A DNA stretch of 64,000 bases. It comes from an uncultured delta proteobacterium (GTDB taxonomy: Bacteria; Desulfobacterota; Desulfobacteria; Desulfobacterales; JAHEIW01). Position numbers and translations under genes: made by a program. The stretch is from assembly GCA_963706575.1 (NCBI GenBank), contig CAVPNL010000005.1, positions 331,556-395,555 of the forward strand, in the 5' to 3' direction. Of the stretch, positions 1 through 17,862 are shown piece after piece. The number at the start of each line of letters is the position of its first letter. The first letter of the stretch is position 1. The notes beneath the pieces were generated by a model. It was not told the DNA's origin. It saw only the letters and a program-made list of their open reading frames with translations, and ran no database searches.

Positions 1-1
1 C

Positions 2-1452
2 CATCGCTATTCAGCGTTTTCCGACTGGCTTTTTTTGATTCTACTTTTCTTTACGACGCTAACCGGCATTATGATGCACGCCCTGCGCATTGCCGGGTGG
101 CCGATGGGAACATATGTCATGTATGTCATCCATCTGGCAGTGGCCGTACCGATGCTGATCATCGAGGTCCCTTTTGGAAAATGGTCCCATCTTTTCTACA
201 GGCCGCTGGCCATATTTTTGGCGAACGTCAGGGAGAAGGCCTCAAAAGACTCCGGGGTCGAGGTTGAGGATGTCATTGCCGAAGCCAGCGAAATTTTCAT
301 GAGCTGCCTACAATGCGGTACCTGCACGAGCGTATGCCCGTGGAATGCGGTTATGTCCTACAGCCCGCGCCGGATTCTGCGGCAGCTCACTTTGGAAACC
401 GGAACCGAACAGTCCATTGACCAAGCTGTCTGGAGCTGTGTGACGTGCAATGCGTGCGGTGTGAACTGTCCGCGCGGTATCGAGATCATCGATGTCATCA
501 AAGCGGTGCGGGGGCTCAATGTCAGCGGCGGAAAAATACCGGCGTCCTTGGTGGCGCCGCTTGATAGCCTGAAGGCCAGCGGTAACCCCTGGGGCGGTGA
601 TCGCACAAAGCGGCTGGAATGGGCCGGAGACCGGAACCTGCCGGTGTTTACACCTGAGCACGAGTACTGCCTGTTTGCCTGTTGTACAACCGCTTATGAC
701 CCCGGCAACCGCAAAGCCGGCCAGGCGATCTTCCAACTGCTGGAATATGCGGGCATTGCTTTTGGCACCCTCGGTGCTGAAGAAAGTTGCTGCGGCGATC
801 CGGCTTACAGGCTGGGGGCGAATGAAATTTTCTCGGAGCTTGCCCTTAAAAATACCGATTTTTTCCTGCAGGCCGGCGTACAGAAGATACTGACCACCTC
901 GCCCCACTGCCTGAACACATTTAAAAATAGCTATGACCGGCTTGAAAGATTCATGTTGCCAGTGAGCATTACACGGAGGTTCTCGACCGGCTGGTCATGC
1001 AGGGCTGCTTAAAACCGACCCTGGAAGTGCCCGCCACGGTCACCTATCACGACCCCTGCTATCTGGGGCGTCACCAAGGCATCTACGAAGCGCCCCGCCG
1101 GGTTTTGATGAAAATTCCCGGGCTTACACTGGTCGAGATGGCAAGCACGAAAGAAAACAGTTTGTGCTGCGGGGGCGGCGGCGGCGGAGCCTGGGGCGAT
1201 TATCCCCGCAATCAGCGCTTGGATGTGCTGCGTGTCAAAGAAGCGCTCAGCACCGGCGCTGAGGTGATTGCCACAGCCTGTCCCTATTGCCTCCGCATGC
1301 TGAACGATGCTGTCAGGGCACTGGGTGTCGGGGATCGAATTGTCGTCCGGGACCTGGCTGAGTTGCTATTGCAGTCGGTGATGATGAAAGATGAGGCCAA
1401 GATGACGGAACACGTTGATTTGGATGTTGATCGGGAGGTCTGCCATGTCTGA
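2..1452 (+). CDS. HdrF-like membrane Fe-S oxidoreductase (QmoC/NarI-like TM end + HdrC-like 2x[4Fe-4S] + two CCG domains); 5' partial, apparent frameshift near 945
   Basis: Frame is open from base 2. PFGKWSH TM motif, CLQCGTCTSVCP and CVTCNACGVNCP, CCG motifs (ESCCG; YHDPCYLGR...LCCGGGGG; TACPYC). ORFs 35..1012 and 997..1452 join through the alternate frame HVASEHYTEVLDRLVMQG. Confidence 0.75.
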
Positions 1453-4400
1453 ACGAATCGGTTTTTATATTTGCCACTGCGGCATCAATATCGCTTATCG
1501 GGTTCGGGTGCAGGAAGTCGCTGCGTACGTGGCGGCTTTGCCGAATGTGGTCATTTCGCGGGATTACCTGTTCATGTGCTCCGATCCCGGGCAGGAACTT
1601 ATTGAAAATGATATTCAAGACTACCAACTTACGCGTGTGGTTGTGGCCTCCTGTTCCCCGCGCATGCACGAAAAAACCTTTCGGGCGGCCTGCCAGCGGG
1701 CCGGTCTCAATCCCTATCGGGCGTTTCACATGGTGTGCGTGCGAGAGCATGTTTCGTGGGTCACCGAGGATGAAGACGAGGCCACCCAAAAGGCCAAGAC
1801 CCTGGCGGTCGCAGGTATCTTACGGGTTGCCTACCAATATGATCTAACACCGGCCACGTTTCCGGTATGCACCAACACCCTGATCGTGGGCGGGGGCATC
1901 GCCGGCATGCAGGCCGCTCTTGATATTGCCAAGGCCGGGTTTAAAGCTTACCTGGTGGAAAGACAGCCCACCGTCGGCGGACACATGCTCCAATACGACA
2001 AAACCTTTCCTACCCTTGACTGCGCGGCCTGCATCGGTACGCCCAAGATGGTCTCCGTGGCCCAGGAAGCAAAGATCGAGCTGCTCTCATACAGCGAGGT
2101 GGAGGATGTCAGCGGCTTTATCGGCAACTTCAAGGTAAAAGTCCGCCGCAAATCGCGCTACATAGAGGATAGCTGTACCGGGTGCGGCGAGTGCGAAAAG
2201 GTTTGCCCGATCGAGTTTCCCAATGAATGGGACGTGGGCACAAAGACCAGAAAGGCGATCTACCGGCCCTTCCCCCAGGCCGTACCCATCACCTACTGTA
2301 TCGACAAGTACGACCGTGCCCCGTGTGTTCAGACTTGCCCGGCCGGCACCAATGTACAGGGCTACGTATCGCTGGTTAAATCGGGCAGGTACCGGGAAGC
2401 GGTCAATCTCATCATGCAGAAATTACCTCTGCCGGGAACCCTCGGACGCATCTGCCCGGCCCCCTGTGAAAAAGAATGTCGCCGCGCCGAGGTGGACTCC
2501 GCCATAGCCATCCGTGATCTGAAACGGTTTGCAGCAGACCAGGTGGACCTTTCCGAGCTACCCCTGCCGGAGATCGAAGACCGGCCGGAGAAGATAGCGG
2601 TTATCGGTTCAGGGCCCGCCGGTCTGACTGTCGCATATTATATGCGATTAAAAGGTTACGCGGTCAGCATTTTCGAGGCGCTGGATCAAGCCGGCGGGAT
2701 GCTGCGGGTAGGGATTCCAGACTACCGTCTGCCGCCGGAGATACTGGACAATGAAATCAATTTTATTCTCAAACACGGGATAGAAATCAGAACCGGCGTT
2801 CGATTCGGATCGGACCTGTCCCTGGAAGGTCTCCGCCAAGACGGCTTTGCCGCCATATTTTTGGGAATTGGCGCCCATGACGCCATCCGGATGAACATTC
2901 CGGGAGAAGAGCAGGCCGCAGGCGTCATCGATGCCCTCGCTTTTTTAAGAGAGGTAAACCTGGGCAAAGGAGAGGTTCCCGGCAAGCAGGTCATTGTCAT
3001 CGGCGGCGGCAATGTGGCCATAGACGCCGCCCGGGTGGCAAAACGTCTGGGGGCCGAAAAGGTGACGGTGGTTTACCGCCGCTCCGAGCGGGAAATGCCG
3101 GCCTATCCTGAAGAATTACACGGCGCCAGGGAGGAAGGTATTGAATTTTCATACCTGACTGCTCCGGTAAGTATCCATCGTCAGGGCGGAAAGGTGACCG
3201 GGTTTGAATGCATTCGCACCGAACTCGGCCCGCCGGATGCCAGCGGGCGAAGGCGACCGCTGCCGGTTGAGGGATCTGAATTCGTCATGGCGTGTGATGC
3301 GGTCATACCGGCCATCGGTCAGAAAATTGATGTAACCTGGAGCGCAGGGGAGCCCGATCTCAAACTGACTTCGCGAAACACTTTTACGGTAAATACCACC
3401 ACTTTGCAAACCAGCCTTCCCGATGTATTTGCCGCCGGTGATGCCGTGACCGGCCCGGCGACGGTCATCGAAGCCGTGGCGGACGGGCACAAGGCGGTGG
3501 CGGCCATGCACCGCTTTATCAGCGGTGAGGATCTGGATCAGTACGCCGCCGAACGGGTTGCCGAAGAACCTCCGGGAACCAAATGGCAGGCAATTCCCGA
3601 AAAGATCAAAAATACTGCCCGGGTGGTATCCGAACATCTGGATCCCGCCCAACGGGCTAAAAATTTCGATGAGGTTGACCGCAATTTTTCCGAGGCGGCA
3701 GCCAGGCAAGAAGCCGCCCGCTGTGTGGATTGCGGAGGATGTTGCGAATGCAAGCTCTGCGTGGACGCCTGTGAAGCCAAAGCGATCAATCACGAAATGG
3801 CGGATAGGGTCGAAGAAATCGAGGTGGGCTCAATCATTGTCGCTACCGGCTTCGATCCCCTCGACCCGACCCCGATGCAGCAATACGGATACGGCAGGTA
3901 CGCCAATGTTTTCACCAATCTGGAGTTCGAGCGGCTTTCCAACGCCACCGGACCGACGGGCGGCAAGCTCCTTAAGCGGGATCCCAACGACCGCTTGAAA
4001 TTCAGCGCGGCGCCGAAAAGCGTGGCGATCCTTCATTGCATCGGCAGCCGCGATATCAACTACCACGAGTATTGCTCGCGCACCTGCTGTATGTATGCGC
4101 TCAAGTATGCCCATCTTCTCAAAGACAAGTGTGGACACGACACGCAAGTTTACAATTTCTACATCGACATGCGTTGCTTTGGCAAAGGGTATGAGGAGTT
4201 TTACAAGCGCGTCCAGAGCGAGGGTGTGCGCATGGTTCGCGGCAAGGCTGCGCGGGTGGAAGAAAACGACGGTATCCTGACGGTAACCGCCGAAGATACA
4301 CTTTCGGACCGAATTGTGAAAGTTCCGGTAGAGATGGTGATCCTGTGCACCGCCATGGAGGCCCGTTCGGACGCCAACACCGTGTCGCGTATCTTTGGGA

Positions 4401-4825
4401 TCAGCCTTGGAAGTGACGGTTTCTTTCAAGAGGAACACCCTAAACTTGAACCTGTGTCGACTCCTACCAGCGGTGTTTTTTTGGCCGGAGCCTGTCAGGG
4501 ACCCAAGGATATTCCTGATACGGTGGCGCAGGCCAAGGGAGCCGCGGCCGAGGCGCTGGCCCTTAGCGCCTCCGGAGAGGTCGCGGTGGCCCCGATGATT
4601 TCATTCATCGACCCGGACATATGTATCGGCTGCCAGGCATGTATCGGACTGTGCGCCTACACGGCTATCGAATTCAATGAGCTCAAAGGGGTTAGCGAGG
4701 TAAACGAAGCCGTGTGTAAGGGTTGCGGTAGTTGTTCCGCCCACTGCCCCAGCGGGGCTGCCAAGGTTCGGCACTTCACCGACAAGCAGGTTTTTGCGGA
4801 AATCGATGGTTTATTAGCCGGTTAG
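1445..4825 (+). CDS. hdrA: HdrL-type protein: HdrA with an inserted NAD(P)H-binding GltD-like flavoprotein module
   Basis: HdrA motifs IGFYICHCG, CSDPGQ, ASCSP, GGGIAG, DKTFPTLDC, HCIGSR..YCSRTCC and C-terminal ferredoxins. Insert has PCVQTCPAG, GSGPAG, GGGNVA, AAGD. GGAGG RBS precedes ATG 1445. Confidence 0.9.
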   Translation: MSERIGFYICHCGINIAYRVRVQEVAAYVAALPNVVISRDYLFMCSDPGQELIENDIQDYQLTRVVVASCSPRMHEKTFRAACQRAGLNPYRAFHMVCVREHVSWVTEDEDEATQKAKTLAVAGILRVAYQYDLTPATFPVCTNTLIVGGGIAGMQAALDIAKAGFKAYLVERQPTVGGHMLQYDKTFPTLDCAACIGTPKMVSVAQEAKIELLSYSEVEDVSGFIGNFKVKVRRKSRYIEDSCTGCGECEKVCPIEFPNEWDVGTKTRKAIYRPFPQAVPITYCIDKYDRAPCVQTCPAGTNVQGYVSLVKSGRYREAVNLIMQKLPLPGTLGRICPAPCEKECRRAEVDSAIAIRDLKRFAADQVDLSELPLPEIEDRPEKIAVIGSGPAGLTVAYYMRLKGYAVSIFEALDQAGGMLRVGIPDYRLPPEILDNEINFILKHGIEIRTGVRFGSDLSLEGLRQDGFAAIFLGIGAHDAIRMNIPGEEQAAGVIDALAFLREVNLGKGEVPGKQVIVIGGGNVAIDAARVAKRLGAEKVTVVYRRSEREMPAYPEELHGAREEGIEFSYLTAPVSIHRQGGKVTGFECIRTELGPPDASGRRRPLPVEGSEFVMACDAVIPAIGQKIDVTWSAGEPDLKLTSRNTFTVNTTTLQTSLPDVFAAGDAVTGPATVIEAVADGHKAVAAMHRFISGEDLDQYAAERVAEEPPGTKWQAIPEKIKNTARVVSEHLDPAQRAKNFDEVDRNFSEAAARQEAARCVDCGGCCECKLCVDACEAKAINHEMADRVEEIEVGSIIVATGFDPLDPTPMQQYGYGRYANVFTNLEFERLSNATGPTGGKLLKRDPNDRLKFSAAPKSVAILHCIGSRDINYHEYCSRTCCMYALKYAHLLKDKCGHDTQVYNFYIDMRCFGKGYEEFYKRVQSEGVRMVRGKAARVEENDGILTVTAEDTLSDRIVKVPVEMVILCTAMEARSDANTVSRIFGISLGSDGFFQEEHPKLEPVSTPTSGVFLAGACQGPKDIPDTVAQAKGAAAEALALSASGEVAVAPMISFIDPDICIGCQACIGLCAYTAIEFNELKGVSEVNEAVCKGCGSCSAHCPSGAAKVRHFTDKQVFAEIDGLLAG

Positions 4826-4839
4826 AAAGGAGTTATCAG

Positions 4840-5262
4840 ATGAGCGAATTTGAACCGACAATTGTAGCCTTTTTTTGCAACTGGTGCACCTATACGGCGG
4901 CGGATTTAGCGGGTACGTCGCGCCTGTCATATCCTCCCAATGTAAAAAGCATTCGGGTGATGTGCACCGGTATGGTGGATCCCCAATATGTGATCAAAGC
5001 CTTTCTGGAGGGGGCTGACGGGGTGTTGATCAGCGGGTGCCATCCGGGTGATTGCCATTATATCAACGGGAATTATAAAGCCCGCCGGCGGATAAAGCTG
5101 CTCAAGGAGATTCTGCCGAAATTCGGTTTTGATCAACAACGGTTGCGCTTAACCTGGATCGGTGCCAGTGACGGCATCCAGCTTGCCGAGGTCATGCGTG
5201 ATTTGGTTGCTCAAATCAAGGCTTTGGGACCCAGCCAGGCCAAGTTGAAGATGGTGATTTGA
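4840..5262 (+). CDS. mvhD: MvhD/FlxD-family [2Fe-2S] subunit
   Basis: FFCNWCTYTAADLAG, IRVMCTG, GCHPGDCHY. RBS AAGGAG before ATG 4840. Confidence 0.9.
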   Translation: MSEFEPTIVAFFCNWCTYTAADLAGTSRLSYPPNVKSIRVMCTGMVDPQYVIKAFLEGADGVLISGCHPGDCHYINGNYKARRRIKLLKEILPKFGFDQQRLRLTWIGASDGIQLAEVMRDLVAQIKALGPSQAKLKMVI

Positions 5263-5429: not shown

Positions 5430-6572
5430 ATGGCGATTACGGCTAAAATTGATGTGAAAGATAAAGACATTTTAGGATCTCTGCAGGGTTTTTTTAAGAA
5501 TATTCTTGAAACTGATGAAATCCAATCACTGCTGGTGCCCCAGCATTTGCCGATGAAAAACATGGTTATGCCGACCCTGGTGACCGATCCGAATCATCTG
5601 AATGGGGTTGATCCGCTATCGCCGGCCTTTCCGATGAACGCCGCCAAGATTGTTTCACGGCTGACCCGCAAGCCGATGGGCGCGAAGGTCGCGGCGGTAT
5701 TGCGACCGTGCGAGATTCGGGCCTTTGTTGAGCTCGTGAAACTTAAGCAAGGGCGCACCGAGGAAGTTATTCTGATTGGAGTGGATTGCCTGGGAGCCTT
5801 CCAAAACAAAGATTATTTTCAGCTGGTGGGACAGAACGCAGCCGAGTCGACGGTCGTGTTCCATGAAAACGTGTTGCGCGGCAAAAGCACCGAGATTGAC
5901 GGTTTGGACCTGGCGCCCGCCTGCAAGGCCTGTGAATATCCGGTGGCAGACAATGCCGATATTCTCATCGGCCTATACGGTATGGATATCGACCAATTTC
6001 TGCTGGTCCAGTCGCAAACTGAGGCTGGAGATCAGATCCTAAAGCAGATGAATCTTTCGACTACAGAGGCGCCCCGCGCCCGCCAGGATGCCATCAATGC
6101 CCTAATTACCCAACGCACCAAGTACCGGGATGACATGTTTGCCAGGACGCGTGAGGCGACCGACAGTCTGGAAAAAATGTCGAGCTACTTTGCCACCTGC
6201 GTCAACTGCTATAACTGCCGGGTGGCCTGTCCGGTTTGTTACTGTAAGGAGTGCGTTTTTGTCACCGATGTATTTAACCATGATCCGTCTCAGTATTTGC
6301 AGTGGGCCAATCGCAAAGGGATTATTAAGATGCCGACCGATACACTTTTCTACCACTTAACCCGATTGGCACATATGAGCACGGCCTGTGTGGGCTGCGG
6401 CCAGTGTTCCAATGCCTGCCCGAATGATATTGCGGTCATGGAGCTGTTTCGAACTATCGCCCACGACACTCAGAAAGCTTTTGACTATGAGGCAGGCAAA
6501 AGTATTGAGCAAGAACCACCACTTTCGGTATTTCGTGAGGACGAATTTGCCGAGGTTGTGGGCATAAATTAA
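5430..6572 (+). CDS. FdhB/FrhB-family beta-subunit-like 4Fe-4S protein
   Basis: LRPCEIRA, GVDCLG, ACKACEYP, CVNCYNCRVACPVCYCKEC, CVGCGQCSNACP. RBS AAGGAG. Confidence 0.8.
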   Translation: MAITAKIDVKDKDILGSLQGFFKNILETDEIQSLLVPQHLPMKNMVMPTLVTDPNHLNGVDPLSPAFPMNAAKIVSRLTRKPMGAKVAAVLRPCEIRAFVELVKLKQGRTEEVILIGVDCLGAFQNKDYFQLVGQNAAESTVVFHENVLRGKSTEIDGLDLAPACKACEYPVADNADILIGLYGMDIDQFLLVQSQTEAGDQILKQMNLSTTEAPRARQDAINALITQRTKYRDDMFARTREATDSLEKMSSYFATCVNCYNCRVACPVCYCKECVFVTDVFNHDPSQYLQWANRKGIIKMPTDTLFYHLTRLAHMSTACVGCGQCSNACPNDIAVMELFRTIAHDTQKAFDYEAGKSIEQEPPLSVFREDEFAEVVGIN

Positions 6573-6615: not shown

Positions 6616-9600
6616 ATGACCAAAAAAATTGGTAAAGCCCTGGTTGTCGGAGCCGGCATCAGCGGTATCCGCTCGGCATTGGACCTGGCTGAATATGGTT
6701 ACGGCGTTACCCTGATAGACCGGTCCTGCCATATCGGCGGCATTTTGAGTCAACTCGACTATCAGTTTCCCACAGACAGGTGCGGTATGTGCAAAATGCT
6801 TCCTTTAGTCGATCGAGATGCAAGCTCGCAATATTGCCTTCGCAAGGGGCTTTTTCATGAAAATATCGACATTCTGCTTGGCACCGAGCTGGTTTCAATC
6901 GACGGTGAGCCCGGCCGTTTCCAGGTCCAGCTGAAGGAGCATCCCAATTGGGTCAATTCCGATCTGTGCACCGGTTGTGGAGAGTGTACCCAGGTTTGCC
7001 CCGTGGAGGTCCCCGACGAATTCAATGCCGGGCTGGCAAAGCGCAAAGCAATATACCTTCCGGTCCCCCATGCCATTCCCAACACCTATATTATTGATGT
7101 TACTTCCTGTAACGACTGCAGGGCCTGTATCGAGGCTTGCCCAACAGATGCCATTCACCTGCCCGAGCAGAAACGCGAGGGATTTCGCATTCTTGTGGTC
7201 GATGATGAACTCATCGTGCGCGATTCCCTCAAGGAATGGTTGCAAGAGGAAGGCTTTGCGGTGGACATGGCCGCCTCCGGTTCGGAAGCTTTAGATCAAC
7301 TGACAAAACAGGAATATCAATTAATGCTGCTGGATATCAAGATGCCGGGCATGGACGGTGTCGAGGTCCTGCAAAAGGCCAGAGAAAGCTTCGCGGATAT
7401 CAATGTGATTATGATGACCGCTTATGCAACCGTTGAAACCGCTGTTGAAGCCATGAAAATAGGGGCTCTGGATTATCTGATAAAACCATTTGATCCCGAA
7501 ACCCTGATCCCCATGGTCCTGAGAATATACCAGGATATGACGGCGGCTGAAGGCCGACAGTTAGAAGTTGGGGCCATCGTACTTAGCGGTGGCACGGCCT
7601 TTTTCGACCCGGCCGGCGGGAAAAACACGTTTGGCTACGGGATGTATCCGAACGTTGTCACCAGCCTTGAGTTTGAACGCATATTAAGTGGTACCGGCCC
7701 CTTTGAGGGACGGCCGCTGCGGCCGCTGGACGGAAAACCGGTTCATAAAGTCGCCTGGATTCAATGCGTAGGCTCGCGCGATTTGCAAACGGATGCAGAC
7801 TTTTGTTCAAATATCTGTTGCATGGTGGCCATTAAAGAAGCTGTCCTGGCCAAAGAAAAAATCGACGCGGATTTGGAAACAACCCTTTTTTATATGGATA
7901 TGCGTACGTTTGGCAAAAGCTTTCAACGCTACCGGGAGCAGGCTGAAAGCCTTCATGGTGTGCGATTCGAAAGGGGTCGGGTCCACTCTGTCATACAGGA
8001 TGAAGAAAGCGGAGATATGATTATCCGCAGTGTGGCCATTTCCGGAAAATCCACTGAATCACATTTTGACATGGTGGTGCTCACCGTCGGCCAGCGTCCG
8101 GCCGGTGGCACCTCTGAATTGGGCGAAATGCTGGGGCTGGAGCTGAATCCATGGGGCTTTGGAAACACTATCCCTTTTTCCCTGACGCGAACCAACCGCA
8201 GCGGGATTTTGCTGGGCGGTTCATTCGCGGGTCTCAAAGACATCGGTGACTCGGTGACCCAGGCCTCGGCGGCTGCCTTATCGGCATCCCAGGTGATTCA
8301 TTCCAGTGGGGGTAGCCTATCGTTGGAGTCGCCGCCAGCCCTGCCCATAGCTGCTCTGGCGCGTGAAATCCCCAGAATTATGGCGGTCGTCTGTACCTGC
8401 GGGGGCAAACTTTCAGGATTTAATGACCCGGCAGAAATTGTTCAACACCTTAAAACCAACCCTGTGGTGAAACAGGTTGAATTTCTGGAACACATCTGCA
8501 CGGCCGACGGCTGGGCACAGCTGGCGGAAATGGTGGAAACGAACAAACCGAACCGGCTTTTGATTGGCACTTGCATGCCCTATGTCTATCAACGCAAACT
8601 CCAGGAGTTCGGCCGGCAGGTGGGTATAGATCCTGCCCTGATGGAAGTGGTTGATGTAAATACGGAATTAAAGGACAAACGGCTACTTTTGCGCAATATG
8701 CTTTCTGCTTTAGAGATGGGGATTTCCAAGCTCAAATGGGTGGACCCATCTTCAACCGTTACAATTCCAGTCGCTCAACGTGCTTTGGTCATCGGTGGCG
8801 GTATTGCCGGCATGACGGCTGCTCTGGCAATTGCCGATCATGGATTTCAGGTGGATCTTGTGGAACAGGCAGAACAGTTGGGAGGAAATCTGAACTGGCT
8901 GCAGCGCACCCTGGAGGGGTATTCGATAGAGACATTGCTGGGGGACACCCGTCTCCTGGTTGAAAGGCATCCCAAGATTGGCGTTCATATCCAGTCCCAG
9001 GTTATTAGTTCTGTTGGCCAGGTAGGGAGTTTTTTGACTACCTTGGAAGGCCCGCAAAATTCGGTCCAAGCCTTGGAGCATGGTGTGACTATTTTAGCCA
9101 CCGGCGGGGCGGAAGCCGTAACCGTTTCTTATGGATATGGTACAAATCCGTCGATTATCACCCAGAAAGAATTAGAGCAAAAGCTATCTGCCGGCAAGAT
9201 CGAACCCGAGCAGCTCGATTCGGTAGTGATGATTCAATGTGTGGACTCGCGCGAGGAACCGCGCAATTATTGCAGTCGGGTGTGTTGTGCCAATTCGCTC
9301 AAGCAAGCCCTGGATCTCAAGGAAAAAAACCCTGAACTTTCAGTATACATTCTTTATCGGGACATGATGGCCTACGGATTTGCCGAGGCTTATTACACCC
9401 GGGCCCGCAAAGCCGGTGTGATCTTCATCCAGTATCAGATTGATGAAAAACCCCGGGTCCAATGCGACCCGGCAAGCCTGGAGGTGGCCGTTTTTGAGCC
9501 CATCCTCGGTCGGCCGCTTCAAATTCAGACGGATCTTGTGGTTTTAGCCACCGGCGTTGTTCCAAATCTTCCTCAGGGCTTGGTGGAAATTTTTGGCGTA

Positions 9601-10020
9601 ACACTTGATCAGGACGGCTTTTTCCAGGAGGCCGAATCCAAGTGGCGCCCGGTTGACGCCCTGAAAGAGGGCGTTTTTGCCTGCGGTCTGGCCCACTCCC
9701 CTCGAAACATACCGGAAGCAATTACCACTGCCGAGGCCGCCGCCGCAAGAGCCTTGAGAATACTTGCCCGTGAGCGCTTGCGGTCGGGAAAAGTAGTGGC
9801 CACTGTCCGTCACAGTCTGTGCAGTCTGTGTGAACAATGCATTGATGCATGTCCATACGGTGCTCGCGTGCTGGATCTTGATCATGAAAAGGTACTGGTA
9901 AATCCGGCAATGTGCCAGGGGTGTGGGTCCTGTGCGGCAGTCTGCCCCAACAGCGCATCCGTTTTGGAGGGTTTTCAGGAACAGCAAATGTTTGAGGTAA
10001 TTGATGCCGCCATTGGATGA
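6616..10020 (+). CDS. hdrA: Tandem HdrA-like flavoprotein (two FAD modules) with an internal response-regulator receiver domain
   Basis: GAGISG, FPTDRC, two CxxCxxCxxxCP, then REC (ILVVDDE...LLDIKMPGMDG...MMTAY...IKPF, ~7186-7530), then QCVGSR..CSNICC. Second GGGIAG/QCVDSR..YCSRVCC module and C-terminal ferredoxins follow. Confidence 0.9.
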   Translation: MTKKIGKALVVGAGISGIRSALDLAEYGYGVTLIDRSCHIGGILSQLDYQFPTDRCGMCKMLPLVDRDASSQYCLRKGLFHENIDILLGTELVSIDGEPGRFQVQLKEHPNWVNSDLCTGCGECTQVCPVEVPDEFNAGLAKRKAIYLPVPHAIPNTYIIDVTSCNDCRACIEACPTDAIHLPEQKREGFRILVVDDELIVRDSLKEWLQEEGFAVDMAASGSEALDQLTKQEYQLMLLDIKMPGMDGVEVLQKARESFADINVIMMTAYATVETAVEAMKIGALDYLIKPFDPETLIPMVLRIYQDMTAAEGRQLEVGAIVLSGGTAFFDPAGGKNTFGYGMYPNVVTSLEFERILSGTGPFEGRPLRPLDGKPVHKVAWIQCVGSRDLQTDADFCSNICCMVAIKEAVLAKEKIDADLETTLFYMDMRTFGKSFQRYREQAESLHGVRFERGRVHSVIQDEESGDMIIRSVAISGKSTESHFDMVVLTVGQRPAGGTSELGEMLGLELNPWGFGNTIPFSLTRTNRSGILLGGSFAGLKDIGDSVTQASAAALSASQVIHSSGGSLSLESPPALPIAALAREIPRIMAVVCTCGGKLSGFNDPAEIVQHLKTNPVVKQVEFLEHICTADGWAQLAEMVETNKPNRLLIGTCMPYVYQRKLQEFGRQVGIDPALMEVVDVNTELKDKRLLLRNMLSALEMGISKLKWVDPSSTVTIPVAQRALVIGGGIAGMTAALAIADHGFQVDLVEQAEQLGGNLNWLQRTLEGYSIETLLGDTRLLVERHPKIGVHIQSQVISSVGQVGSFLTTLEGPQNSVQALEHGVTILATGGAEAVTVSYGYGTNPSIITQKELEQKLSAGKIEPEQLDSVVMIQCVDSREEPRNYCSRVCCANSLKQALDLKEKNPELSVYILYRDMMAYGFAEAYYTRARKAGVIFIQYQIDEKPRVQCDPASLEVAVFEPILGRPLQIQTDLVVLATGVVPNLPQGLVEIFGVTLDQDGFFQEAESKWRPVDALKEGVFACGLAHSPRNIPEAITTAEAAAARALRILARERLRSGKVVATVRHSLCSLCEQCIDACPYGARVLDLDHEKVLVNPAMCQGCGSCAAVCPNSASVLEGFQEQQMFEVIDAAIG

Positions 10021-10041: not shown

Positions 10042-12345
10042 ATGTTCAAGTTTATCAAAAATATCCGGCGTCGGTTGGCGACCAAGCTCATTTTAACAGT
10101 CGGCCTGACCCTGCTCATTACGATTTCTACCTGGGCTTACTTTAATATCAATTATCAGGAAAAAAAGCTCATGGAGAATATTGTAGAAGGAACCGATCGG
10201 TTAACCAATACCATCAAACTCGGCACGCACTATGCCATGATGCTAAACTCGCGGGATGATATCAACCAGATCATTAATAATATCGGTAGGCAGAAAGAGA
10301 TCGAAACCATTCGTATTTATAATAAGGGCGGGAAAATCAAATATTCCAACCAGCCGACGGAAATTGATACCGCCACCAATATAAAAGATGAAGCTTGTTA
10401 TATCTGTCACCGGACGGAACCACCGCTGTTTGAACTCAGCCTGGAAGAAAGAACACGTATCTTTACCTCTGCCAAAGGCTATCGTTTACTTGGAATTATT
10501 AGCCCTATTTGTAATGAGCCTGGGTGTGCGACCGATGCCTGTCATATACATCCGAAAGGCAAAAAAATTCTTGGAGCGCTAGATGTGGTGGTCTCTCTGG
10601 AAGATGCGGATAAAGAAATCTTCATGACCCAAAAAGAAGCGTTTGGTTTGGCGGGTGCTATTTTCCTGGTGACATCCACCATTATTTTTCTTTTCCAGTT
10701 GCGGTTTGTCAATCAACCGATCCGGAAATTAATCGATGGAACCCGTACCATCGCAGAGGGGATTCATCCCAGCAGAGTCGACATTGACCAGGACGATGAG
10801 ATGGGAAAACTTGCGGTTGCCATCAATCAGATGAGTAAAAAAATTGCCGAAAAACAGGCCGAACTGAATGAACAAAGAGACGAATACCAGACCCTCTTTG
10901 AAAGGGCACCCTGCCTGATTACGGTTCAGGATCGAAATTATAAGTTGCTAAGATATAATCGCGAATTCGCAAAACAGTTTGATCCTCAGCCCGGCGAACA
11001 TTGCTATCATTCATATAAAGGGCAAGATCAGAAATGTGAAAATTGCCCGGTTGAACACACATTTGAAGATGGTCAAACCCATTATGGTGAGGAGACCGGG
11101 CTTAACAAAGACGGTACCCCGGTTCATTGGATTCTGCGAGCATCTCCGATTAAAAATGCGAAGGGTGAAATTGTTGCCGCCATCGAGATGAGCCTAGACA
11201 TTACACAGCGCAAACAGCTTGAGGACAAACTGGAAAAGTCTGAGAAGAAATATCACGAAATTTTCAACAATATGCCAAACCCCGTTTTTGTATTGGACCT
11301 GGCGTCATTGAAGATACTCGACTGCAATGAGAGTGTAAAACCAGTATACGGATTTGATAAAGATGAAGTCATTAACAGATCCTTTTTGGATCTCTTCATC
11401 GGAAAAGACCGTGATGAATATGCGTCAAAGCTAAAAAACGTTTCCGTGATCAACCAGGCAAAACAGCAGAACAAAAATGGCAAGACACTTTTTGTGACCA
11501 TCAGAATTTCGCCTTCGGATTATTCGGGCAATAAGGTGCTTCTCGTGAGCACCAGCGATATCACCAAACGGCTCGAAACCGAGCAGCAGTTAATCCAGGC
11601 CAGCAAGATGGCAACCTTGGGAGAGATGGCCACCGGAGTTGCCCACGAGCTCAATCAGCCGCTTTCGGTGATAAAAACCGCCAGCAGTTTTTCCATAAAA
11701 AAAATAAATAAAAACGAGCCGATCGAAGCGGAAATCTTGTTCAAAATTCTGGCAAAGATAGACAGTAATGTGGATCGAGCGACAAAAATAATTAACCATA
11801 TGCGGCAATTTGCGCGTAAATCTGAGATGGATTTGGAGAAAGTCCAGATCAACGACATTCTCGAAAGGGCTTTTGAGATTTTCAGCCAACAGCTTAAGTT
11901 AAGAGGGATTGAAGTCATCTGGTCCATCGACAAGAAATTACCGAAGATCAATGCGGATCCCGGTCGCATGGAGCAGGTGTTTATCAACCTTTTATTGAAT
12001 GCCAGAGACGCAATTGAGGATAGATGGGGTAATCAAGAGCCGCAATCAAGTGAAAAAAAGATTATTCTAAAAACAGTCTGTGATGGGCACAACGTCATCT
12101 GCGAGGTCTGTGATACCGGCATAGGGATTTCGGAATCTATTTCAGATAAAATATTTGAACCTTTTTTCACGACGAAGGAAGTCGGCATGGGCACGGGGCT
12201 GGGGTTATCCATCAGTTATGGGATCGTGAAAGATTGCGGTGGTAGTATACAGGTCGTTCCCAACAAGCCAGAGGGCGCCTGTTTTGTTTTAAAATTTCCG
12301 CTGCAGGATATAAACGATGCAAAAGAAATTACTACTCGTCGATGA
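10042..12345 (+). CDS. Membrane sensor histidine kinase (periplasmic c-type heme motifs, HAMP, two PAS, HisKA/HATPase)
   Basis: Two TM segments flank CYICH and CATDACH. HAMP DEMGKLA, H-box GVAHELNQPL, N-box NLLLNARDA, G-boxes DTGIG and GTGLGL. Confidence 0.9.
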   Translation: MFKFIKNIRRRLATKLILTVGLTLLITISTWAYFNINYQEKKLMENIVEGTDRLTNTIKLGTHYAMMLNSRDDINQIINNIGRQKEIETIRIYNKGGKIKYSNQPTEIDTATNIKDEACYICHRTEPPLFELSLEERTRIFTSAKGYRLLGIISPICNEPGCATDACHIHPKGKKILGALDVVVSLEDADKEIFMTQKEAFGLAGAIFLVTSTIIFLFQLRFVNQPIRKLIDGTRTIAEGIHPSRVDIDQDDEMGKLAVAINQMSKKIAEKQAELNEQRDEYQTLFERAPCLITVQDRNYKLLRYNREFAKQFDPQPGEHCYHSYKGQDQKCENCPVEHTFEDGQTHYGEETGLNKDGTPVHWILRASPIKNAKGEIVAAIEMSLDITQRKQLEDKLEKSEKKYHEIFNNMPNPVFVLDLASLKILDCNESVKPVYGFDKDEVINRSFLDLFIGKDRDEYASKLKNVSVINQAKQQNKNGKTLFVTIRISPSDYSGNKVLLVSTSDITKRLETEQQLIQASKMATLGEMATGVAHELNQPLSVIKTASSFSIKKINKNEPIEAEILFKILAKIDSNVDRATKIINHMRQFARKSEMDLEKVQINDILERAFEIFSQQLKLRGIEVIWSIDKKLPKINADPGRMEQVFINLLLNARDAIEDRWGNQEPQSSEKKIILKTVCDGHNVICEVCDTGIGISESISDKIFEPFFTTKEVGMGTGLGLSISYGIVKDCGGSIQVVPNKPEGACFVLKFPLQDINDAKEITTRR

Positions 12346-13438
12346 TGAAAAGGATGTCCGCGAGGTTCTGCTCTTACCCTTGTCGGATTTCGGATACCAT
12401 ATTTTCGAAGCCGAAAATGGAGAGGAAGCTTTGCGCCTTTTTAAGGAAGTCCAGCCGCCGATCGTTATGACTGATATTAAAATGCCGGGCATTGATGGTA
12501 TCGAGCTGCTGCGAAAGATAAAACATGAAAATCCGGAGACCGAAGTCATTATGATCACCGGGCATGGGGATATGGATCTGGCAATTAAAAGTCTTAAATA
12601 TGAAGCCACAGATTTTATCACGAAACCAATTAACGTCGATGCTCTGGAAATCGCACTCCAAAGGGCTATGGATCGAATTATTACCCGACAAAAACTACGC
12701 GAGTATACCGAAAACCTCGAGCAGCTTATACGCGAGAAAACCGAGTTGCAGAGCCATTTATCTTCGCTAGGTTTGATGATTGGATCCATATCTCATGGAA
12801 TAAAAGGCCTGTTGACCGGATTAGATGGCGGTATGTATCTGCTGAACTCAGGTTTTTCGAAAAAAAACAAAGACCAGACTGAAGAGGGGTGGGAAATCGT
12901 AAAGTCGATGGTCGAACGAATCCGCAAGATGATTATGGATATCCTTTTTTATGCCAAGGAAAGAGATCTCAAATTGGAGCGCATCGATATCCGAAATTTT
13001 GTCGAAGAGGTGGTCAAAGAACTTGAACCAAAAATGAAAAGTCAAAACATTAAATTCATAAAGAATTTCGATACTGATCTAGGAGAGCTCGAAGTTGACG
13101 CAACCTATGTCCATTCTGCCCTGATTAATATCATTGAAAATGCAATAGAAGCCTGCAGCCAAGACCAAACAAAAAACTCGCCTGAAATTGTTTTCAGCGT
13201 CAAAGCGCACAAAAAAAGCGTCATCTTTGAAATTGCTGATAATGGCATTGGTATGAATCGTGAAACTCAGGAAAGAATTTTTACACCATTTTTTTCGTCC
13301 AAAGGGAGCAAAGGAACCGGACTAGGGCTTTTTGTCTCCAACACCATCATCCAGCAGCATGGTGGTGTAATCAATGTGAAATCCACCTCCGGTCAAGGTG
13401 CTGTTTTTCAGGTAAAAATTCCGAAACAGGAGGGATAA
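12317..13438 (+). CDS. Cytoplasmic hybrid REC-histidine kinase
   Basis: LLVDDE..TDIKMPG..ITGHG..TKP receiver, H-box SISHGIKG, NAIEA, DNGIG, GTGLGL. Confidence 0.9.
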   Translation: MQKKLLLVDDEKDVREVLLLPLSDFGYHIFEAENGEEALRLFKEVQPPIVMTDIKMPGIDGIELLRKIKHENPETEVIMITGHGDMDLAIKSLKYEATDFITKPINVDALEIALQRAMDRIITRQKLREYTENLEQLIREKTELQSHLSSLGLMIGSISHGIKGLLTGLDGGMYLLNSGFSKKNKDQTEEGWEIVKSMVERIRKMIMDILFYAKERDLKLERIDIRNFVEEVVKELEPKMKSQNIKFIKNFDTDLGELEVDATYVHSALINIIENAIEACSQDQTKNSPEIVFSVKAHKKSVIFEIADNGIGMNRETQERIFTPFFSSKGSKGTGLGLFVSNTIIQQHGGVINVKSTSGQGAVFQVKIPKQEG

Positions 13439-14451
13439 TGAGAACTTTCGACGATTTAATTAAAGAAGTGCAAAACCCCGGACTTTGTCATCGTTGTGGT
13501 GCTTGTGTCGCCTTTTGTGCAGCCATTAACTACGGGGCTTTAGAGTTAGATTCAGAAGGGCAACCAAGATATGCGGATAAAGATAGATGTATCAAGGGTG
13601 GGCTGTGCTATGTAATCTGCCCGGCGATCGATGAGTTAAAAGAAGAAACAAAAAGAAAGGTGGATTGGGCCGCGCCCATGGGGCGGGTATCCGATATCCG
13701 TATTGCGCGTGCGAAAGACCCGGCTATCCGCAACGCAGCTACGGATGGGGGCGTTGTCACCGCGTTACTGGTTTATTTATTTCAAAAGCGTCAGATAGAT
13801 GCCGCTGTCGTGACAAAGCCTGTCGGGCCATTCAAGCGTGAATCGTTTTTAGCCGCAACTGAGGAGGATATTCGCAGTTCAGCCGGATCTTTCTTTGATA
13901 TCTCATATGGCATGAAAAGCTTAAGCGACCATTACTCGACTTATTCCCAGATAGGCGCATTTCATTCTAATATCAAAAATGGATTTCAACGTGTTGCCTT
14001 CGTCGGGACTCCCTGCCAGATACAGGCCATTCGCAAAATGCAAGCGATCAATATCTTCCCGTCGGATGCCGTCAAGTTATGTTTGGGACTGTTATGTTCG
14101 GGAAACTTCATTTTTGGAGAAAAACAACGGCGCCAGGTTGCCCAAATTGGCAATTTTCAATGGGAGCGTGTCAAGAAAATTAATATCAAAGAAAAGCTGA
14201 TGGTGCATTTAAAAGGCGGTGAAGTGAAAACAATTAAGCTAAACGATCTTAACTTCATGAAGCGGTTTCCTTGTAATTTCTGTGATGACTTTTCGGCCGA
14301 GTATGCCGACATTTCATTTGGCGGGCTGGGTGCAGATGAAGGGTGGACCACCGTTATTATACGCTCCCCGATAGGAAGGAAATATTTTTCATGGGCTAAG
14401 TCCAAAGCAATTGAAGAAAACGAGGAGGGTCGCCATCTGCATCATACCTAG
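13438..14451 (+). CDS. Coenzyme F420 hydrogenase/dehydrogenase beta-subunit (FrhB)-like protein; C-terminus probably continues in the +1 frame to 14569
   Basis: CHRCGACVAFC, DGGVVTALL, VGTPCQ, GLLCS, CNFCDDFSAEYADISFGG. Confidence 0.8.
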   Translation: MRTFDDLIKEVQNPGLCHRCGACVAFCAAINYGALELDSEGQPRYADKDRCIKGGLCYVICPAIDELKEETKRKVDWAAPMGRVSDIRIARAKDPAIRNAATDGGVVTALLVYLFQKRQIDAAVVTKPVGPFKRESFLAATEEDIRSSAGSFFDISYGMKSLSDHYSTYSQIGAFHSNIKNGFQRVAFVGTPCQIQAIRKMQAINIFPSDAVKLCLGLLCSGNFIFGEKQRRQVAQIGNFQWERVKKINIKEKLMVHLKGGEVKTIKLNDLNFMKRFPCNFCDDFSAEYADISFGGLGADEGWTTVIIRSPIGRKYFSWAKSKAIEENEEGRHLHHT

Positions 14452-15134: not shown

Positions 15135-15449
15135 ATGGAAAAAATGTTAACATACATGATCGTCCACAATGATCCCAACATTTCATGGGAAAAGGTGGAG
15201 GAAAACTGGGGAAAACTCGCAAATGTCGAAACGTGTACATGGGTGCGGACTTGTTTTAATAAAGATAAGGGGCTGCGCTATTGTGTATGGTTGGCTCCCG
15301 ATGAGCGTACATTAAAATCGATTTTTACTGATCTTAATATCTCTTATGAATCGATAATAGAAGTTGAAGAAACGGTTCCAGATCTGTGGGGCAAGAGATG
15401 GGAAGAGCACCTCGCTGCAGAAGAAACGGCTAGCACACGGGGATTTTAA
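15135..15449 (+). CDS. DUF4242-like (SCO4226-like) small protein, paralog 2
   Basis: YMIVH...WVRTCF..KGLRYCVWLAPDE...SIIEV. RBS GAGGAGG. Confidence 0.65.
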   Translation: MEKMLTYMIVHNDPNISWEKVEENWGKLANVETCTWVRTCFNKDKGLRYCVWLAPDERTLKSIFTDLNISYESIIEVEETVPDLWGKRWEEHLAAEETASTRGF

Positions 15450-15501
15450 TAAAAATTCCCTAATTTGAATGTTAATTTACATCCTATGTGGTGAGTACTG
15501 A

Positions 15502-15532
15502 AGGCAGGGTCAGCAATGGCCCTGCCTATTTT
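15502..15532 (+). terminator. Rho-independent terminator
   Basis: AGGCAGGGTCA-GCAA-TGGCCCTGCCT hairpin followed by ATTTT. Confidence 0.65.
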
Positions 15533-15682
15533 ATCTTTAACTTTTGAGTTGCCATTTATCTGCATAAAAGTAGTCTTTATGAATTGCGGATTATGCCAGC
15601 ATATCAAAGGTCTGCAGGTCGTCATCCCTTTCCTTCATTTACAAAAATGCTTGACAACCCATTCGTAAACGCTCAGGGTTAT

Positions 15683-15700
15683 TATGAGCATATGCTTATA
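15683..15700. promoter_or_regulatory. Palindromic operator candidate, copy 1
   Basis: TATGAGCATATGCTTATA, downstream of TTGACA at 15651 and upstream of the FmdB-like gene. Confidence 0.6.
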
Positions 15701-15798
15701 ATCTAAGAGCCACTATCTCCGCAAATATTGATAATATTAGATACTTACTCGTGCAAAATTCAGGTAACAACAAATGATCGAGTTTTTGGAGGGATCGC

Positions 15799-16056
15799 AT
15801 GCCTTTGTTTGATTATCTCTGTGAGAAATGTGGAAGCGTTAATGAACTACTGATGACAGCAACGTCTGATCGACCGCAATGTCATTTCTGTGGCAGTCAA
15901 GAACTTAAAAAACTCATTTCGGCCCATTCTTCTGCATCCGGAGGATCTCAAATTCGTTTGCCGGCAGCGGGTGACACGGGTTGCTGCGGGTCGCAACCAC
16001 ACCAGGTCGACTGCGAAGGGCCAGGAAGCTGCTGCGGAAAAGTTGCTAAGCGTTAA
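15799..16056 (+). CDS. FmdB-family zinc-ribbon protein with Cys-rich tail
   Basis: MPLFDYLCEKCG...CHFCGS..LKKLIS; tail GCCG..C.GPGSCCG. Confidence 0.85.
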   Translation: MPLFDYLCEKCGSVNELLMTATSDRPQCHFCGSQELKKLISAHSSASGGSQIRLPAAGDTGCCGSQPHQVDCEGPGSCCGKVAKR

Positions 16057-16089
16057 AAGGCGGGCTATTTTTTATTGTCAGACATATAA

Positions 16090-16515
16090 ATGGAACAGAA
16101 AAAATTTGATTTTTGGCAGGATTATTCCCTGCGTTATCTGGAAATGGCCTTTCGTACTGACCGCCGAGGAATTGTTAAACATTCGGATGGTTACGGAAAG
16201 AGAACCGGTGTCTGCGGTGATAGCGTTGCAATGTATTTGACGATTCGTGGCGGTCGCATCCAATCGGTGTCATATGAAACCAATGGATGCCTGAGTACCA
16301 ACGCCTGTGCCAACACGGTTGCTGAATTGATCGAAGGTAAGGATATGGGATCGGCCTGGGAGCTAACACCCGAAGATGTGATGAAATACCTGGAAACATT
16401 ACCCTCGGAAAATGCCCATTGTGCCGAACTTGCGACCGGGGGCCTTTATCTGGCGCTACAAAATTTTCGGGAATTCAAGCATGATCCGAGAAAGAAGCTG
16501 TATGGGGGAAGTTGA
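16090..16515 (+). CDS. NifU/IscU-like Fe-S scaffold domain protein
   Basis: GVCGD, GCLSTNAC and HCAELA supply the three conserved Cys. Confidence 0.8.
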   Translation: MEQKKFDFWQDYSLRYLEMAFRTDRRGIVKHSDGYGKRTGVCGDSVAMYLTIRGGRIQSVSYETNGCLSTNACANTVAELIEGKDMGSAWELTPEDVMKYLETLPSENAHCAELATGGLYLALQNFREFKHDPRKKLYGGS

Positions 16516-16589
16516 CCGTTTTGCATGTTTGAGTGGGGTGCAAAAATTTAGGTGATCGAGGACCATACACGCAAGGTGTCGAATTTAAC

Positions 16590-16625
16590 AAAATAAGGGG
16601 TGGTAAATTAGCCACCCCTTATTTT
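16590..16625. terminator. Bidirectional Rho-independent terminator
   Basis: AAAATAAGGGGTGG...CCACCCCTTATTTT between convergent genes. Confidence 0.8.
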
Positions 16626-16662
16626 CTGGTGTATTCAATCGCTTCTTACCCCGGCCACCCAC

Positions 16663-17028: not shown

Positions 17029-17184
17029 AGGATCACCTCCTTTCGCTATCATTATAGCGGTTTTCAAAAAAACGTTCCACTATTCAAACGTTTGTTTCTA
17101 CAACCACTTATGCCGCATTTCCGCAATTCGGAACATTATTATGAAAAGCGGTATAATTCGTAAAAGGTTTGATTTATAGATTAT

Positions 17185-17828: not shown

Positions 17829-17862
17829 TGGGGCTAATCTCCTATTACGCTCATTTGAGCAT

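Follow-up and report, generated by a model that had tools for sequence, protein, structure and literature searches.

A receiver domain nested within a fused, asymmetric double HdrA of Desulfobacterales: a candidate phosphorylation switch for an HdrA-type redox complex

In heterodisulfide reductase (Hdr) complexes, the low-potential branch is carried by a ferredoxin domain inserted into the flavoprotein HdrA (passages of PMC13518236 and PMC9012536), and conformational gating has been proposed for these complexes (passages of PMC13518236). In asymmetric HdrAs, the path runs via a cluster completed by Cys197, and the fused or tandem asymmetric HdrAs of anaerobic methanotrophic (ANME) archaea, namely HdrA 3/4, 5/6 and 12/13, are described as acting as their own heterodimers through complementarity between Cys197 and the N-terminal domain (Chadwick et al., 2022; passages of PMC9012536). 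HdrL / HdrA-NfnB fusions are described from Desulfobacterium autotrophicum (HdrL; passages of PMC2702500) and from ANME-1 (HdrA 9-11; passages of PMC9012536). Fusions of receiver (REC) domains to enzymes are likewise a recognized class, which includes REC-thioredoxin-reductase proteins from archaeal metagenomic samples (Galperin et al., 2018; passages of PMC5847659). Here, we describe a 64,000-nucleotide stretch of contig CAVPNL010000005.1 (the window) from an uncultured member of the Desulfobacterales, in which one gene encodes a double HdrA with a receiver domain nested inside it, a protein that we refer to as REC-HdrA.

The REC-HdrA gene (window positions 6616-10020, forward strand) is one stop-free frame, as had been noted in a first-pass annotation made from the sequence alone, and encodes 1134 amino acids. 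An alternative, longer open reading frame (ORF) starts at TTG 6580, and Met1 at ATG 6616 is nearly invariant among homologues (144-sequence alignment). Residues 192-300 (nt 7189-7515) match the Pfam family Response_reg (PF00072) with an E-value of 2.4e-32 and 111.8 bits against a cut-off of 30.2, the match covering profile positions 1-109 of 111. Spo0F, NtrC1 and CheY are among the phmmer matches of the domain, and its nearest NCBIfam families are AtoC/ZraR/NtrC, below their cut-offs. The motifs VVDDE (aa 194), LLDIKMP (aa 238), MMTAY (aa 266) and IKPF (aa 289) are all in place, as the annotation had said, with D196, D197, D240, T268 and K290 making up the phosphorylation pocket and codon 7333-7335 (GAT) encoding Asp240. 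Its further statement, that a complete receiver lies between the 2x[4Fe-4S] insert and the rest of the first flavin adenine dinucleotide (FAD) module, agrees with the Pfam match and with the alignment to the solved HdrA chain 5ODC_A, in which the 126 residues 186-311 stand in for about five HdrA residues (312 to 318) where the chain exits the inserted ferredoxin domain.

We built an AlphaFold2 (AF2) model of REC-HdrA on the 144-sequence alignment, with a mean predicted local distance difference test score (pLDDT) of 88.4 and a predicted template-modelling score (pTM) of 0.87. In this model, the receiver block (pLDDT 73-90) has five strands and five helices in (βα)5 order; β1 (187-195) begins a few residues past the ferredoxin domain, and α5 (294-310) continues into FAD strand 312-318. 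The receiver is, therefore, predicted to be held by very short linkers and nested rigidly at the point of exit from the inserted ferredoxin. CheB, PleD/WspR and RpfG are examples of response regulators with enzymatic output. Like these regulators, REC-HdrA joins a canonical, phosphorylatable receiver to an enzyme and has a cognate-type kinase nearby, and the expected logic is post-translational control of catalysis. Unlike the CheB/PleD architecture, its receiver is not N-terminal but nested within the enzyme, with HdrA sequence on both sides, and as output it has an electron-bifurcating-type flavoprotein with several clusters.

The HdrA part of the protein aligns to solved HdrA in four stretches (phmmer against solved structures): residues 15-184 with 5ODC_A 153-312 (start of the FAD domain and inserted ferredoxin domain), 315-512 with 318-514 (remaining FAD domain of module 1), 584-758 with 2-181 (N-terminal cluster domain and beginning of the second FAD domain), and 962-1130 with 476-647 (last part of the FAD domain, and C-terminal ferredoxin). 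REC-HdrA thus reads as two HdrA-like modules in one chain, an asymmetric double HdrA, and the annotation's wording of a "first FAD module" was apt. Module 1 is without N-terminal and C-terminal domains and has the inserted ferredoxin domain together with Cys56/Cys59 (HdrA Cys194/Cys197); module 2 is without the inserted ferredoxin domain and without a Cys197 equivalent, no Cys occurring between residues 653 and 875. Each accessory domain occurs once, the inserted ferredoxin in module 1 and the C-terminal ferredoxin in module 2, and the N-terminal cluster domain of module 2 (C593, C595, C628, C653) is complemented by C56/C59 of module 1. As in the fused HdrAs of ANME archaea, one half has Cys197 without the N-terminal domain and the other half the reverse (passages of PMC9012536), and the complementary halves would therefore form a self-contained heterodimer with one electron path. 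Unlike the ANME proteins as portrayed in these passages, which mention no receiver for them, REC-HdrA has the reversed module order (Cys197 in the N-terminal module), is bacterial and carries a REC.

With the methanogen enzymes (HdrABC-MvhAGD, Fdh-Hdr-Fmd and Hdr-Vhu-Fwd; 5ODC, 7BKB, 8RVU/8RVY), REC-HdrA shares the thioredoxin-reductase-like FAD domain with CxGSR...CxxxCC, the inserted 2x[4Fe-4S] ferredoxin, the N-terminal cluster domain with its partner Cys197 and the C-terminal ferredoxin, and its locus likewise supplies MvhD and CCG-domain (HdrB/C-like) partners. It differs from them in the fusion of two modules, the single copy of each accessory domain and the 126-residue REC after the inserted ferredoxin. 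Since REC-HdrA is bacterial, CoM-S-S-CoB is unlikely to be its substrate. Foldseek returns the HdrA chains 8RVY_A, 5ODC_A and 7BKB_A as top matches (target-normalized template-modelling scores of 0.5-0.93), and Pfam Pyr_redox_2/NAD_binding_8 match the FAD modules, with Fer4 and FAD/NAD(P)-binding families flanking the receiver. The NCBIfam curated cut-offs are missed (HdrA2, 692.2 bits against 1100; HdrA, 541.9 against 1400), and we therefore regard REC-HdrA, by profile score, as an HdrA-family homologue and not an equivalog of the methanogen enzyme. The HdrA motifs, which the annotation had described as kept, are invariant columns in the 144 aligned sequences: G12/G14/G17, E354/R355 and C384/G386/R388/C397/C401/C402/K407 in module 1, together with C59 (C56 nearly so) and, among the inserted ferredoxin cysteines (118, 121, 124, 128; 165, 168, 171, 175), C118, C128, C165, C168, C171 and C175. 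In module 2, C875, C886, C890, C891 and the eight C-terminal ferredoxin cysteines are invariant, G727-G729/G732 are invariant or nearly so, and C593, C595, C628 and C653 are nearly invariant. The linker between the modules (aa 566-583) is weakly conserved, with a pLDDT of 56-78 and 47% pairwise identity.

REC-HdrA is not confined to one assembly. Among the matches listed, all 120 near-length homologues, most of about 1140 residues, contain PF00072, and the homologues come from JGI, ENA, NCBI and Logan assemblies. We fetched 270 homologous proteins, 140 of which span both REC junctions within one alignment. Searched with residues 151-350 of P0001, 139 of 301 sampled genomes from the window's order gave a match (E<=1e-45); about 131 of these span both junctions, mostly in frames of about 1150 residues, four match in part, with the first junction included, and four in the REC alone. 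The architecture is, thus, common rather than rare in the order, and a 401-genome sample of the phylum adds six carriers outside it. Named carriers are metagenome-assembled genomes of Desulfobacterales, Desulfobacteraceae, Desulfococcaceae, Desulfosalsimonas, Desulfotignum and Desulfobacula, and several of the carrier genomes, in 1-7 contigs, are finished or close to it. Contigs of other public sequencing runs also bridge the junctions, the first in X2 record 18 (7001-7241, 4 differences) and the REC-to-FAD junction in X16 record 13 (7431-7800, 25 differences), a contig of an RNA library that is no proof of transcription. At neither junction do these bridging contigs show an insertion, deletion or joint. 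The Logan contigs are short, so that no single piece spans the gene and uncovered parts carry no meaning, and a depth peak at 7300-7413 corresponds to the conserved DIKMPGMDG motif of unrelated response regulators. The source genome is a draft in 25 contigs with contamination estimated at 6.39%, which could invite the explanation that a response-regulator gene was wrongly fused into hdrA during assembly or gene calling. The chance of this is negligible, given that identical junctions recur in 140 proteins of independent assemblies, in 131 of the 301 genomes and in contigs of other runs, and that the HdrA alignment resumes exactly on both flanks of the receiver; the chimeric assembly that the annotation had named as one refuting result is excluded on these grounds.

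The receiver is also strongly conserved. All 140 homologues that span the junctions keep Asp240, whose loss in homologues would have counted against the annotation's reading, and 137 of them keep the complete D-D-D-T-K pocket; both are intact in 63 of 63 genome loci, at least seven of which duplicate a genome already in the set or are the window's own. Across 121 REC-bearing rows, 53 of 127 receiver positions are at least 95% conserved, including Tyr287, Pro291 and nearly all of M266-G283 (β4-α4). Tyr287, three residues before Lys290, is the aromatic switch position, and β4-α4 is the surface through which receivers usually interact. The receiver has a mean pairwise identity of 77%, compared with 85% in the first FAD segment, 70% in the inserted ferredoxin, 66-68% in the FAD cores and 53% in the N-terminal domain. 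Because the receiver exceeds the FAD cores in this measure, it appears to be constrained at least as strongly as the catalytic parts, consistent with purifying selection, and it is apparently functional.

In the locus comparisons, kinases are enriched beside REC-HdrA. In the window, the sensor kinase gene follows REC-HdrA after a 21-nt gap, the two kinase genes overlap by 29 nt, and a 1-nt overlap joins the second of them to an FrhB-like gene; the kinase genes lie inside the redox operon. Of 13 loci with 2.8 kb or more of downstream sequence, 11 have an orthologue of the sensor kinase (at least 49% identity), as do 17 of 20 further loci near REC-HdrA, and the hybrid REC-kinase has a full-length orthologue in 11 of these 20 and its C-terminal part in 4 more. 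These 20 loci represent 19 families, and an earlier set of 18 loci may share genomes with them. As a control set, we took 20 tandem-HdrA loci without the receiver from the same order, with similar flanks. A kinase core of any kind lay in the flanks of 19/20 REC-bearing versus 3/20 REC-less loci, and a separate REC in 18/20 versus 4/20; the REC-less loci L134, L135, L137-L139 and L141 share the HdrL-MvhD-FrhB-like-HdrA operon. The annotation's proposal of adjacent kinases as partners is, thus, borne out as a genomic link and falls short as to a particular kinase, the partner varying among loci. Both kinase cores are nearest AtoS/ZraS in NCBIfam, below cut-offs, which together with the AtoC/ZraR/NtrC affinity of the receiver makes a weak family-level match, and about 30 kinase-REC pairs show hardly any variation in the H-box and in REC α1. 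Docking of the sensor-kinase DHp-CA core (two copies) with REC 186-312 scored 0.02 against a mark of 0.32, with controls not run, an outcome that speaks neither for nor against this pairing.

CxxCH and CxxxxCH are haem-binding motifs of c-type cytochromes, for example cytochrome c3. The sensor kinase has two hydrophobic segments that enclose an extracytoplasmic domain of about 165 residues (window 10042-10700 encodes aa 1-220 of the kinase), with CxxCH at aa 119 and Cx4CH at aa 162. Of 27 rows with residues at the first motif (the window's row counted), 25 have C-x-x-C-H, the two others being L001 (frameshifted) and L123 (truncated), while G-C-x(3,4)-C-H occurs in 26/26 covering rows and the H-box AHELNQP in 29/29. 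The domain has a sub-threshold Pfam match to PF21563, a chemoreceptor sensor family (23.8 bits against 27). Taken together, this suggests a two-haem c-type redox or ligand sensor.

How might these parts work together? The complex is presumably of the flavin-based electron bifurcating or confurcating kind and would connect NAD(P)H with ferredoxin and a thiol/disulfide acceptor, and REC-HdrA is presumably partnered by HdrL (the NAD(P)H module), MvhD, the FrhB-like protein and HdrB/C/D-like CCG proteins. We consider it somewhat likely that REC-HdrA is the output of a two-component system, in the form of some direct control of the enzyme by phosphorylation, and such phosphorylation would probably act on the low-potential ferredoxin arm; the annotation had taken this inserted domain as the low-potential exit, in agreement with passages of the Hdr literature (PMC13518236; PMC9012536). 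In the mechanism that we propose, kinases encoded in the cluster would phosphorylate Asp240, the candidates being the membrane kinase with its CxxCH/Cx3-4CH domain, the REC-kinase hybrid and, in some lineages, a REC-PAS-kinase. The Thr268/Tyr287 switch would then reshape the conserved β4-α4 surface and, because the receiver is tied in by very short linkers, the change would be passed on to the position or accessibility of the ferredoxin arm, or to the docking of partner subunits. Electron flow could in this way be turned on, off or redirected without new transcription. That the phosphorylated receiver specifically gates the low-potential branch is a more tentative proposal, and gating of bifurcation as such is something that we infer. 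Equally speculative is the most detailed version, in which the haem-c-type sensor kinase would phosphorylate the receiver and open or close the ferredoxin branch within seconds, perhaps the first direct two-component switch of bifurcation.

Several observations weigh against direct phospho-control of the enzyme. The insertion site may be a permissive hot spot, because HdrL carries an insert in the same HdrA domain about 25 residues earlier, and position alone is no proof of gating. The α5 of the receiver is variable and poorly conserved in the 121 rows. The sensor-kinase orthologue is absent in L114, L118 and L119 (3/20) and in L007 and L018 (2/13), and L118 (G146:C1:8007009-8027008), near the end of a single-contig genome of 8.03 Mb, has a full-length REC-HdrA with intact pocket and no HdrL, MvhD, FrhB-like or kinase gene in 20 kb. 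In a REC-bearing metagenome subclade, about 60% identical and followed by HdrC/B-like genes, a REC-PAS-kinase on the opposite strand takes the place of the sensor kinase (L219, L226, L230), and no kinase was found downstream in L203 (3.7 kb), L211 (1.2 kb) or L212 (7 kb). Conversely, in the REC-less loci L191, L194 and L196, the enzyme gene is directly followed by genes for a distant PAS-kinase and a stand-alone REC. The kinases are, therefore, not exclusive to the insert, and the two-component link of the enzyme is broader than the insert itself; the partner kinase is not constant across loci. The kinases may also act on other receivers of the cluster (stand-alone REC, REC-kinase, REC-PAS) in place of the inserted one. 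Finally, because REC-bearing proteins form largely one clade, the kinase association reflects few independent events that were retained widely, not 19.

These points bear on three alternative explanations. The receiver might be a signalling node, acting as a phosphate sink, competitor, docking platform or redox reporter back to the kinases, with the real output elsewhere in a branched network, for example in expression via the neighbouring σ54 activator. The wiring of the cluster gives this some substance: it is rich in REC-PAS, HisKA-HATPase, PAS-σ54 activator, stand-alone REC and two downstream kinases, so that the network holds three kinases, the stand-alone REC and, in some genomes, a Usp-REC-Usp protein whose receiver is 63-66% identical to the inserted one (L120/L123). 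Cluster receivers that are only 31-35% identical to each other are consistent with several separate phosphorylation routes, and REC-less operons with kinase and stand-alone REC exist. We nevertheless regard a signalling node as rather unlikely, as a sink or scaffold needs neither a near-zero-linker splice at a specific internal site of an enzyme nor output-side switch residues and a β4-α4 surface that are at least 95% conserved, and Pfam finds no Hpt domain in the cluster to take the phosphate onward.

Phosphorylation might also control assembly and not intramolecular electron transfer: the phosphorylated receiver would dimerize by its α4-β5-α5 face or bind HdrL, MvhD or the FrhB-like subunit, so that sub-complexes join or separate and the inserted ferredoxin domain is wired to a partner in one state only. 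The concentration of conserved surface on β4-α4, a common receiver interface, fits this explanation, as does the placement of the receiver at the exit of a domain that is wired directly to a polyferredoxin in a solved super-assembly (passages of PMC13518236). Assembly control is a sub-variant that overlaps with direct phospho-control, and taken on its own we consider it unlikely. Very unlikely, in our view, is a structural pseudo-receiver that is never phosphorylated and stabilizes or spaces the ferredoxin domain. Pocket residues are indeed lost in 3/140 homologues (P0141, DPDAK; P0144, DPDGH; P0162, TDDTK), REC-less forms of enzyme and operon exist, which makes the receiver dispensable for the fold, and the site tolerates insertions, as in HdrL; yet a mere spacer would hardly account for the 137 homologues and 63 loci with intact pockets, the conservation of Tyr287 and Pro291, or the enrichment of kinases beside the REC-bearing form. 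Direct phospho-control of the enzyme remains our preferred explanation.

The receiver is an accessory to the tandem HdrA, and many tandem HdrAs of about 1000 residues are without it. Of these, P0152 is the closest; it shows 63% identity on one side of the site and 51% on the other, and has an 11-residue bridge there. A metagenome scan for close P0152 relatives gave none closer than 51% over the full length, and the nearest REC-less locus, L152, has 3.4 kb of downstream sequence. On a FastTree tree made without the REC columns, the REC state changes 3 times, compared with a mean of 21.7 for shuffled labels (0/500 as low). REC-less P0152 pairs with a REC-bearing row on this tree, and P0144, with its degenerate pocket, falls among REC-less rows; the tree has long branches, and such details are unsafe. 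A possible relative of the insert is the receiver of the 437-aa Usp-REC-Usp protein, encoded between HdrC/B-like genes and kinases at L120:12045-13358 and L123 ~12509-12871, which may be a sister or donor lineage. The window's own genome contains three REC-less tandem-HdrA paralogues with 38-39% identity (G000:C4:340612-343621, C4:4089-8498 and C15:254213-257194). Each has one in-frame TGA in the first FAD segment, as do many REC-less relatives in the order; this is probably a selenocysteine in the Cys194/197 region, and selenocysteine has been reported for HdrA/HdrL of D. autotrophicum (passages of PMC2702500).

The features of the locus are collected in the table below.

Features of the REC-HdrA locus, in window coordinates
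Feature	Coordinates	Strand	Basis
HdrD-like (Fer4 + CCG) gene, 3' part; starts upstream at L081:11162	1..1012	+	Pfam, ORF open at window start and at end of L081
HdrB-like CCG-domain protein	997..1452	+	Pfam CCG E 3.1e-20
HdrL, HdrA with ~470-aa NfnB/GltD-like NAD(P)H module	1415..4825	+	Pfam, NCBIfam, phmmer
MvhD (FlpD) homologue	4732..5262	+	Pfam FlpD E 2.2e-53
FrhB-like C-terminal domain + Fer4 protein, conserved partner directly upstream	5430..6572	+	Pfam, locus comparisons
REC-HdrA gene, fused asymmetric double HdrA with nested receiver	6616..10020	+	Frame, Pfam, phmmer, AF2, Foldseek
Module 1 FAD domain, first part (aa 1-105), GxGxxG, Cys56/Cys59	6616..6930	+	5ODC alignment
Module 1 inserted ferredoxin domain (aa 106-185), 2x[4Fe-4S]	6931..7170	+	Pfam Fer4 families, Cys map
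Nested REC (aa 186-311), β1 187-195 to α5 294-310	7171..7548	+	PF00072, phmmer, model
Codon GAT, predicted phospho-acceptor Asp240	7333..7335	+	Read directly
Module 1 rest of FAD domain (aa 312-565) and linker (aa 566-583)	7549..8364	+	5ODC alignment, CxGSR...CxxxCC
Module 2 HdrA N-terminal domain (aa 584-715), Cys593/595/628/653	8365..8760	+	Query 584-758 = 5ODC 2-181
Module 2 FAD domain (aa 716-1058), GGGxxG kept	8761..9789	+	Pfam Pyr_redox_2 723-836, Cys map
C-terminal ferredoxin domain (aa 1059-1134), 2x[4Fe-4S], and stop codon	9790..10020	+	Pfam Fer4_7/Fer4_10 1067-1113
Sensor histidine kinase, transmembrane - Cys-motif domain - transmembrane - HAMP - PAS - PAS - HisKA - HATPase	10042..12345	+	Pfam
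REC - H-box - HATPase hybrid kinase	12317..13438	+	Pfam, NCBIfam AtoS/ZraS type
FrhB/FdhB-like iron-sulfur flavoprotein gene	13438..14451	+	Pfam FrhB_FdhB_N/C; NCBIfam below cut-offs

The gene order HdrD-like, HdrB-like (CCG), HdrL, MvhD, FrhB-like, REC-HdrA, sensor kinase and REC-kinase is conserved, and HdrL-MvhD-FrhB-like lie immediately upstream of REC-HdrA in 18/20 loci; the FrhB/FdhB-like gene that ends the series in the window is not conserved, with a match in L001 only of the 18 earlier loci and in none of the 20 further ones. HdrL, encoded three genes upstream of REC-HdrA, is of the HdrL / HdrA-NfnB type. Its residues 13-298 align with 8RVU_a 12-298, 301-778 with NfnB-type chains and 771-1133 with 8RVU_a 296-652 (phmmer), so that the module is inserted within the protein's own inserted ferredoxin domain. 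Unlike the receiver of REC-HdrA, this insert is an NAD(P)H/FAD redox module and lies between the two cluster motifs; the receiver is a signalling module and follows about 25 residues later, past the second motif. The true start of MvhD is probably about 30 codons into its ORF, judging from orthologue alignments, most of which start at query residue 31-37.

Upstream of the window, the cluster continues with genes for a REC-PAS protein, a HisKA-HATPase protein, a PAS-σ54 activator-HTH protein without REC and a stand-alone REC with an intact pocket; the last two occur at other loci as well. We saw no DNA-binding regulator with a REC among the genes of the cluster, the input of the σ54 activator being PAS, and a Pfam search for an Hpt domain was likewise negative there. 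The three RECs of the cluster are the ones that show the low mutual identity mentioned above. The REC-PAS (L081:6986-7891) and HisKA-HATPase (L081:7674-8552) genes overlap in different frames and have as their counterpart in L120 a single gene for a 525-aa REC-PAS-HisKA-HATPase protein; the split in the window's genome is a frameshift, either a sequencing error or a pseudogene. The stand-alone REC gene heads the cluster, and 26 nt before it, just after the PAS-σ54 activator gene, stands a TGGCAT-N5-ATGC element (GG-N10-GC, the σ54 spacing; L081:10618-10632). This is a weak lead, as the pattern occurs 11 times with 12.4 expected by chance. Scans for terminators and σ70 promoters gave nothing above shuffled sequences.

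Elsewhere in the window, a 688-aa protein joins an N-terminal REC to a Na+/sulfate-symporter / CitMHS-type transporter (20612-22678, reverse strand), the second example here of a receiver coupled to an effector that does not bind DNA. Its gene adjoins those of a stand-alone REC (20053-20604, reverse) and a dCache histidine kinase (22620-24422, reverse). Beside the Hdr cluster lie genes for an SCO4226-like nickel-responsive protein (15135-15449), a NifU-like protein (16090-16515), a DUF5320 protein (16663-17067, reverse), an AIR-synthase-related protein with SelD/HypE/ThiL-type fold (18310-19269) and a TusA-DsrE fusion (19345-19941), and this region (15135-19941) gives the neighbourhood a sulfur/selenium-trafficking flavour.

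Public databases auto-annotate REC-HdrA proteins as "response regulator" or "heterodisulfide reductase subunit A". In the literature that we searched, which did not extend to subscription-only journals, we found no description or characterization of a receiver within HdrA, in line with the annotation's statement that it knew of no characterized example. Passages of PMC5109826, PMC4046663 and PMC6491731 do not describe the fusion. In the D. autotrophicum genome paper, a figure legend puts response regulators and kinases beside hdr loci, and the word "receiver" is absent from the paper (PMC2702500). A bioRxiv survey that distinguishes 11 HdrA architectures contains no "response regulator", "receiver" or "CheY" (passages of 10.1101/2024.09.26.615249). 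REC-HdrA is real and widespread; the fusion type is known as a class, and for this nested form no published description was found.

For anaerobes living close to the thermodynamic limit, the balance between ferredoxin and NAD(P)H is set by flavin-based electron bifurcation. Regulation of bifurcating complexes beyond expression is largely unknown, and structural work has proposed gating without a physiological trigger. REC-HdrA places a tractable switch (a phospho-Asp that can be mimicked with BeF3- or altered by D-to-A/E substitution) on the domain assigned as the low-potential exit, which makes the question of gating directly testable, and this switch has been retained under what appears to be strong selection in many Desulfobacterales-type families, together with kinases. 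If our proposal is correct, a multi-cluster redox enzyme with a nested receiver would be a new output class for two-component signalling, and periplasmic redox sensing would feed into the cytoplasmic ferredoxin/NAD(P)H balance in about four of every ten sampled genomes of the order. Such a switch would, therefore, be relevant to marine sulfate reducers, which are central to marine carbon and sulfur cycling.

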